A stretch of DNA of 64,000 nucleotides from an uncultured Verrucomicrobiae bacterium (lineage in GTDB: Bacteria; Verrucomicrobiota; Verrucomicrobiia; Limisphaerales; Palsa-1400): the NCBI GenBank assembly GCA_963764165.1, contig CAVXRD010000004.1:32001-96000 (forward strand), in the 5' to 3' direction. Every line of letters starts with the position of its first letter. The stretch's first letter is position 1. Shown here one piece after another: positions 2,950 through 3,143 of the stretch. Under the pieces are notes generated by a model that saw only the letters and a list, made by a program, of their open reading frames with translations, did no database searches and was not told the origin of the DNA. Both the position numbers and the translations under genes were made by a program.

Positions 2950-2976
2950 TTCTGTGCTAGTTTCTGTGCTAGTTTC
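2950..2976. repeat. 12-bp tandem repeat TTCTGTGCTAGT x2, candidate integrase arm-type site
   Basis: Exact tandem copy about 130 bp inside the att fragment. Confidence 0.5.
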
Positions 2977-3104
2977 ATGTTCGGGAATGCGTCATTTGAA
3001 ACACGAGTGGATACGGCCAAAAACTGATAAAACAATCACAGCATCAATGATTTATGCGGGTGACAAGCGACGTGGAAAAACGGTGTGAAATGAGTCAAAT
3101 TGGA

Positions 3105-3143
3105 ATTTTCAGTCCTCTGCTCTACCAACTGAGCTATCCTGCC
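3105..3143 (-). pseudogene. 5' half of tRNA-Phe(GAA), att-site fragment
   Basis: Minus strand reads GGCAGGA TA GCTC AGTTGGTA GAGC A GAGGA CTGAAAA T, then non-tRNA sequence with no 3' anticodon stem, T-arm or CCA. Confidence 0.85.

Follow-up and report, generated by a model that had tools for sequence, protein, structure and literature searches.

A displaced 5' half of a tRNA-Phe gene marks one end of an island that very probably supplied the front of its target tRNA in a genome of the Verrucomicrobiota

The isolated 5' half of a tRNA-Phe(GAA) gene found on the minus strand at positions 3105–3143 of the DNA analysed here (a 64,000-nt stretch, referred to as the window, which corresponds to contig C4 32001–96000 of the 7.0-Mb, five-contig genome G000) is very probably the original front half of that gene, displaced by an 8.3-kb element that carried its own copy of tRNA nt 1–39 and likely recombined in the anticodon loop. 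Read on the minus strand, the fragment (C4 35105–35143) runs GGCAGG...CTGAAAAT and is identical at 39/39 positions (BLAST E 1.6e-15) to nt 1–39 (C4 26830–26868) of an intact tRNA-Phe(GAA) gene, which whole-genome analysis with ARAGORN placed on the minus strand at C4 26793–26868, 5.1 kb to the left of the window. The initial annotation had described a minus-strand half gene stopping about 1 nt past the anticodon loop and had predicted an intact minus-strand copy sharing the 39-mer to the left of the window; the identity does indeed end one base past the 7-nt loop (nt 32–38), at nt 39, and the intact gene lies where it was predicted. The fragment is not a functional tRNA: neither ARAGORN nor Rfam at its gathering score reported a tRNA at window 3105–3143, and in a permissive Rfam scan it scored 22.2 bits (cut-off 29), the intact gene scoring 74.3 bits. 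Together with the three bases upstream, tRNA nt 1–39 form a perfect 42-bp direct repeat, the right copy of which (the attL core, window 3105–3146, 100% identity in the repeat search) is separated by 8,275 bp from the left copy at C4 26830–26871, outside the window; the 8.3 kb between the two copies is referred to below as the Phe island. A second tRNA-Phe is present in G000 within an array of about ten tRNA genes (C2 1559019–1567965), which also includes a tRNA with anticodon TTA, called 'Stop' by ARAGORN.

The interpretation of the half-tRNA turns on its polarity. Because it is the 5' end of the tRNA that has been duplicated, with the leftover copy situated upstream of the intact gene, nt 1–39 and everything upstream of them must have come with the element, and this 5' polarity therefore makes window 3105–3143 the front half that belonged to the host, still joined to its original upstream region (window 3147–3300, minus strand, by sequence reading). 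The rebuilt gene, whose upstream DNA would have been supplied by the element, should now be read from element DNA. When the arrangement was compared with the definition of an island used by Islander, the intact tDNA and the fragment were found to share one replicon (C4) and one strand (minus), the fragment is a 5' end fragment situated 8.2 kb upstream of the tDNA in the gene's own orientation, the repeat spacing lies within the accepted length of 2–200 kb, and a tyrosine integrase of neither the Xer nor the integron type is encoded inside the interval. Inspection by eye of the native region ahead of the displaced half revealed CTTGCG-N18-CACAAT, ending about 10 nt ahead of tRNA nt 1 and resembling, again by eye, the promoters ahead of the untouched tRNA genes of G000; a consensus promoter scan near the displaced half gave only TTGCCA-16-AACAAT, further upstream (window 3295–3268). 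From these sequences we infer that the native region may carry promoter activity. An intergenic stretch of about 95 nt to the right of the half-tRNA (window 3328–3422) matches unlinked places in the related genomes G008 (81%) and G004 (74%).

Bacterial tRNA introns and split tRNAs also break near the anticodon loop. The 5' half ends at just such a point, so that it could in principle belong to a tRNA gene that is split or interrupted by an intron, an alternative already raised in the initial annotation, or else the relic of a local duplication or deletion. Against this, no 3' piece of tRNA-Phe (15–35 nt) was found nearby or elsewhere in the whole genome, which argues that the half-tRNA is not part of a split or interrupted gene, and no Rfam intron family matched in the window. 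Moreover, an intact copy exists, an integrase and matching arm sites lie between the two copies, and the same arm sequence follows tRNA-Phe halves in three other genomes, so that we regard an origin of this kind as very improbable. Even less credible is an ordinary 3'-type integration by an element lying to the right of window 3146. Such integrations account for the great majority of islands (3760/3919 in the Islander tabulation; PMC4383910) and several are present in G000 itself, but here the duplication comprises the tRNA 5' end, on the same strand as the intact gene and upstream of it, and the right flank consists of glycoside hydrolase, amylase and MFS transporter genes of host GC content, with no integrase.

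The content of the interval is that of a small integrative element. The initial annotation had predicted an integrase at the far end of the island, and a 409-aa tyrosine integrase is encoded there (C4 26950–28179; Pfam PF00589 6.6e-20, PHROG integrase 1.1e-55), divergent from tRNA-Phe and with 81 bp between its start and the tRNA 5' end. Its reading frame is whole and the catalytic residues R250, H344-x-x-R347, H370 and Y381 are all present; in an alignment of six tRNA-Phe-site integrases R250, R347, H370 and Y381 are invariant, H344 not being among the invariant columns. The protein has about 100 extra N-terminal residues, with a Pfam Int_N match of 22.9 bits at residues 121–185 (below the cut-off of 27), and among proteins of solved structure it is closest to an archaeal Xer-like recombinase (1.8e-12). 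Because its matches to the NCBIfam Xer and integron models were all far below threshold (e.g. 68.7 bits for XerC against a cut-off of 335), no subfamily name is given to it here. The integrase gene is followed by orf209, encoding a 209-aa protein of no known family (C4 28189–28818), and by a gene for a 418-aa HUH rolling-circle Rep protein (C4 29132–30388), the translation of which contains the HUH and catalytic tyrosine motifs of a rolling-circle initiator (HLHVVV and YVAGYLTK), its family matches being weak (Pfam 24.3 bits, cut-off 27.8; PHROG 2.7e-4).

The remaining genes are cargo. TerY (a vWA protein; C4 30478–31317, PADLOC TerY 1.2e-102), a PP2C phosphatase (plus strand, starting at C4 31333 and with its 3' end at window 1–106; PADLOC PP2C 3.8e-31) and a 758-aa Ser/Thr protein kinase (plus strand, window 103–2379; PADLOC STK_OB 2.3e-82, Pfam Pkinase 6e-9) are encoded by contiguous, co-oriented genes (positions 12478–16379 of the local stretch L001, C4 18001–36000), adjacent to one another as the PADLOC definition of the triad asks. 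Residues 5–294 of the kinase match positions 1–291 of the 562-position STK_OB model, and its C-terminal part has a helix-hairpin-helix match. We take the TerY/PP2C/kinase triad to be a TerY-P system, and anti-phage activity has been reported for TerY-P; the AT-richer defence cargo noted in the initial annotation thus holds as far as its composition is concerned (GC 0.512 for the cargo and 0.529 for the whole island, against 0.58–0.60 in the flanks) and, as regards defence, as a candidate assignment. A 110-aa DUF4236 protein (window 2387–2719, plus strand; Pfam PF14020 1.1e-16) is encoded next. No excisionase was recognised in the island with Pfam, and the island contains no virion or transfer genes; its left flank encodes methionyl-tRNA synthetase (MetRS). 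Between the last gene and the half-tRNA lies a conserved non-coding region of about 370 bp (window 2736–3104), the P' arm, which ends at the half-tRNA. An 84-aa ORF in this arm was considered as an excisionase and rejected, having no Pfam match and being frameshifted in the sibling island described below, and a structured RNA was likewise rejected (fold z -1.14; 11/100 shuffles fold as well).

A sibling of the Phe island, about 7.0 kb long and bounded by the same repeat of nt 1–39, is present at tRNA-Phe in a second genome, G173. The integrases are 93% identical, and nucleotide identity is 89% over the int-orf209-rep segment and 85% over the P' arm, but the two islands have neither flank in common, and in place of the kinase triad the one in G173 carries a 930-aa BspA-type LRR protein as cargo. 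The element thus combines a constant backbone with cargo that can be swapped. This P' arm, recognisable by conserved sequence blocks, also adjoins isolated tRNA-Phe halves in G017 and G010, and other island families with different arms occupy the same tRNA-Phe in G018 (5.3 kb), G014 (4.2 kb), G006, G011 and G002; at least one isolated tRNA-Phe 5' half away from a contig end was detected in 9 of the 40 relatives searched.

Evidence for an empty site or for excision was sought in relatives and in metagenomes. When the right flank and the MetRS-tRNA flank were each searched in 40 relatives, none had both flanks together, no empty site was found, and ARAGORN reported no tRNA in the seven right-flank loci scanned. 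Only G004 keeps the MetRS-tRNA-Phe arrangement; its 5' flank is not syntenic with the right flank in the window and maps elsewhere in G000. Among sequencing runs, only two, both of peat metagenome DNA and none of RNA, were found to hold parts of the stretch (5–6% of its words); contigs from these runs extended over the tRNA, the P' arm and some of the integrase-Rep backbone, with almost none of the TerY-P cargo; no excised circle, restored attB or joint across the island was seen in these small shares of the stretch. One odd joint of low depth, from 16837 to 11268, was noted in the peat runs.

Other arrangements involving tRNA-Phe were observed in the relatives. A locus in G016 (C12 226001–244000) encodes an integrase 74% identical to that of the Phe island, with the same arm sites, and contains at 8561–8605 a 45-nt tRNA-like piece comprising the front part of tRNA-Phe with a changed loop base and without a 3' half; the intact tRNA-Phe of G016 is on another contig, and the piece may represent a secondary-site insertion or a rearranged array. 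On contig C25 of G006 two displaced tRNA-Phe halves (7934–7971 and 9139–9176) lie 1.2 kb apart with different arms after each, which suggests successive insertions by different island families, one of the islands having decayed. Finally, a locus in G013 (C72 10001–25450) carries two full tRNA-Phe genes 7 kb apart, at 5752–5827 (minus strand) and 12887–12962 (plus strand); the 110 nt upstream and the downstream sequence are identical for the two, and these identical surroundings in opposite orientation indicate an inverted duplication around the tRNA.

The initial annotation had also pointed out a 12-bp tandem arm-like repeat near the half-tRNA. This repeat is real and has a counterpart, so that each end of the island carries such a pair. 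In the P' arm, two copies of TGTGCTAGT with a 12-bp period (window 2953–2961 and 2965–2973, by motif count) are located 170–190 nt away from the first tRNA nucleotide of the displaced half, and the second pair (L001 8921–8941) is found between the integrase start and the intact tRNA-Phe, 53–75 nt upstream of the latter. The motif has four matches in 18 kb, all of them at the two island ends, against 0.03 expected, and none of 200 shuffles reached four. From these positions an attP of about 270 bp can be reconstructed, in the order arm pair, about 55 nt, tRNA nt 1–39, about 130 nt, arm pair.

In order to establish how widespread this type of insertion is within G000, every tRNA was scanned against the whole genome for fragments. 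Correctly placed 5' halves were found for six tRNAs, namely Phe, Arg(CCU), Pro(UGG), Lys(CUU), Ser(GGA) and Leu(UAA), and each of these six 5'-type islands has a divergent tyrosine integrase 44–82 bp from the tRNA 5' end; classical 3' fragments were found for Leu(CAA), Cys, Asp, Asn, Thr(CGU), Ala(CGC) and Gly. The Pro island (tRNA at C1 1070350–1070426, fragment at 1103232–1103276), the Lys island (C2 104717, fragment 49671–49711), the Ser island (C2 1862192, fragment 1841407–1841445) and the Leu(UAA) island (C2 2368701–2368788, three fragments at 2388548, 2399789 and 2073140) are about 20–55 kb in size, with the integrase 51–82 bp from the tRNA 5' end. The two same-strand fragments upstream of tRNA-Leu(UAA) suggest a tandem array. 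An extra copy of the Ser half is present on another contig (C1 915552–915590).

When the region upstream of the rebuilt tRNA was compared with the region beyond the displaced half in each of the six islands, a tandem motif located about 60–75 nt upstream of the rebuilt tRNA recurred at +160 to +190 past the displaced half in five of them, the Lys island being an exception in spacing (about 30–45 nt upstream of the rebuilt tRNA). The motifs are island-specific: ACTAGCACA for Phe, GGGTGACAAG for Pro, GTATAGAA for Lys, GTATCAGA for Ser and GTGTCGCAA for Leu; no paired arm motifs were found in the Arg island by this two-arm comparison. Motifs that differ between elements and agree between the two arms of one element have the appearance expected of arm-type integrase sites.

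Decayed N-termini of integrases, comprising residues 1 to about 100, are found in divergent orientation just upstream of two further tRNAs of G000, namely tRNA-Met (C1 1158671; remnant region C1 ~1156200–1158670) and tRNA-Thr(UGU) (C2 3564248; remnant region C2 ~3561750–3564247). No displaced half was detected for either tRNA, and the two loci look like decayed reversed islands in which element DNA has been kept as the tRNA upstream region. Boxes of a similar kind (GTAAGT..TTG..AAT) occur ahead of tRNA-Ala(CGC) and tRNA-Leu(CAA). These decayed relatives raise the question of whether the Phe island is itself a fossil, having arrived as described above and then lost excision, with the half-tRNA remaining as an inert scar. 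That no excisionase gene was recognised and that neither a circle nor an empty-site junction was seen in the two peat runs are in keeping with such a fate. However, the two 42-bp repeats are identical throughout, the integrase has an unbroken frame and its catalytic residues, both pairs of arm sites are intact and a sibling with 89% nucleotide identity in the backbone occupies tRNA-Phe in G173, so that we consider a fossil state possible but rather doubtful.

The initial annotation had suggested that 5' duplication is a recurrent strategy of an integrase clade, and the data from integrase phylogeny and from relatives bear this out. When the 18 tyrosine recombinase ORFs detected in G000 were placed in one tree, the Phe and Leu(UAA) integrases paired at 100/100 (they are 44% identical), the Pro, Lys and Ser integrases grouped at 99/99, and these five of the six 5'-type integrases joined with moderate support (80/89). 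A search of one genome per species with the alignment of six tRNA-Phe-site integrases yielded 80 loci with relatives of 40–93% identity, mostly in Verrucomicrobiota MAGs (Limisphaerales, 'subdivision 3', Pedosphaera and others) and including one contig of the same-family relative G016. At 68 of the 80 loci ARAGORN found an opposite-strand tRNA, its 5' end mostly about 80 bp (37–132 bp) before the estimated integrase start; at one of these (L090) the tRNA overlaps the estimated start. The tRNAs concerned are 3 Phe, 2 Lys, 1 Met and 62 Leu (four isoacceptors), and the remaining 12 loci comprise 5 without upstream DNA, 6 without a tRNA and 1 with a co-directional tRNA. One conserved layout of the integrase-tRNA spacer was present in 69 loci: in the direction of the tRNA it consists of the start codon of the integrase, a pair of arm repeats spaced at a period of about 12 bp, GTCAA, some 20 variable bases, CGTAAGTnnTTGnnAATnA and GGTT, followed by the tRNA.

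The Arg island, which lies entirely within the window, has the same geometry, as had been noted in the initial annotation. The displaced 5' 40 nt of tRNA-Arg(CCT) (window 28918–28957, plus strand) are 40/40 identical to window 36513–36552, the front of the intact, rebuilt gene (window 36513–36588, plus strand; ARAGORN, Rfam 56.1 bits), and the identity again ends one base past the anticodon loop; the tyrosine integrase (window 35248–36468, minus strand; Pfam and PHROG integrase matches) is divergent and 44 bp from the tRNA 5' end. However, the expectation that the Phe-island integrase would be related to this one (given at the time as 35248–36429) was not upheld. The two are 22% identical over 250 aa (E 1e-4), and in the tree the partner of the Arg integrase (100/99) is the one next to tRNA-Leu(CAA), a classical 3'-type enzyme. 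Among 30 loci with relatives of the Arg integrase, 6 are reversed, 12 classical and 12 without a tRNA, so these loci also serve as a control showing that the same method detects the opposite polarity. Given a distant integrase that pairs with a 3'-type enzyme, relatives of mixed polarity and unpaired arms, we conclude that the Arg and Phe islands share geometry and not clade. Comparison of the Phe/Leu-clade loci with the Arg-relative control indicates that the Phe/Leu clade is stably reversed in polarity, the reversed form in the Arg lineage being a separate occurrence. Our literature search found no description of a verrucomicrobial integrase clade with fixed 5' polarity, although earlier core papers on tDNA islands may bear on it.

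With regard to the mechanism of insertion, our working hypothesis is that the N-terminal part of the integrase would bind the arm sites, with the anticodon stem serving as the core site. Identity with tRNA-Phe ends at nt 39 in the family to which the Phe-island element belongs and at nt 41 or 42 in other island families, and this places strand exchange at or before nt 39; by analogy with known anticodon-centred sites, exchange within the 7-nt anticodon loop is likely. In five of the six G000 islands the identity ends 0–6 nt past the loop, and for tRNA-Leu(UAA) the nearest fragment ends at +6 and the two others at or inside the loop. The rebuilt tRNA-Phe would thus be composed of nt 1–39 of the element and the native 3' part and be transcribed from element DNA. 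A candidate replacement tRNA promoter is of the extended -10 type, with a conserved TGn and an A/T-rich box 5–11 nt upstream of the tRNA, the A/T-rich hexamer occupying -11 to -6; from it, transcription would begin at the mature tRNA 5' end or adjacent to it. On the integrase strand a putative promoter contains TTGACG, its spacer being filled by the two arm sites and its -10 box lying about 8 nt before the ATG; the integrase mRNA would then be nearly leaderless, and arm sites inside the promoter spacer could allow autoregulation. A sigma-70 consensus promoter scan of the integrase-tRNA spacer returned 0 sites, and both proposed promoters consequently rest on conservation and on reading by eye. 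After excision, the circle may replicate by the rolling-circle mode through Rep, and the TerY-P triad, judged by its gene content, may protect the host against phage.

These elements can be combined into a broader reading, in which the clade always rebuilds its target tRNA from the front, controls transcription of essential tRNA genes through a conserved bidirectional region of about 80 bp, in which the arm sites would lie inside the integrase promoter and next to the replacement tRNA promoter, and over time has rewritten the upstream regions of at least eight tRNAs in G000. Taken as a whole, we put this forward as speculation that is more probably wrong than right by a wide margin. If true, the supply of a host tRNA would depend on, and be tunable by, the state of the element, which would give the element a built-in hold on its host. 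Irrespective of this, the Phe island is a clean type case, for which attP can be reconstructed to the base and the arm sites are backed by covariation across five islands. The clade as a whole constitutes a large natural set of integrases whose tRNA targets can be predicted (Phe, four Leu isoacceptors, Lys and Met) and whose polarity is fixed, a set which should be of use for island finders that assume 3' fragments and for picking integrases for genome engineering of Verrucomicrobiota, and which lets one ask whether mobile elements routinely replace tRNA promoters.

Insertion that replaces the 5' part of a tRNA gene is rare but has already been catalogued, and the Phe island is a clean example. 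In Table 1 of Islander, 159 of 3919 islands have a tDNA fragment from the 5' end ('reversed target orientation'), the filters given in that source describe exactly the configuration of the Phe island (PMC4383910), and 5'-distal recombination is described as 'considerably less frequent' in a passage of Krupovic et al., 2019 (PMC6563490). The likeness to the reversed islands, as Islander presents them, extends to an intact tDNA, a same-strand upstream 5' fragment, an internal tyrosine integrase and, probably, an anticodon-centred site (PMC4383910). The present case differs from them in that the polarity is common to nearly a whole integrase clade, mostly from Verrucomicrobiota (68/80 loci), in the conserved integrase-to-tRNA spacer of about 80 bp and in the occurrence of six undecayed and two decayed cases in one genome. 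The cargo resembles TerY-P in having the full set of three genes, side by side and in one orientation, each with a match to its PADLOC model, and departs from it in a kinase of 758 aa of which only the N-terminal part matches. With small integrative elements encoding an HUH initiator (of the Pfam REP_ORF2-G2P and PHROG 3419 type) the island shares a Rep gene situated beside the integrase in the conserved backbone, but the family scores of this Rep are weak and the island has no virion or transfer genes. Heterobivalent tyrosine integrases of the lambda type recognise arm-type and core-type sites. The Phe-island integrase is like them in having the R..HxxR..H..Y set and about 100 additional residues at the N-terminus, and the island in having tandem arm sites on both sides of the core within about 270 bp, whereas similarity to lambda Int at the level of sequence is marginal (E 4e-4).
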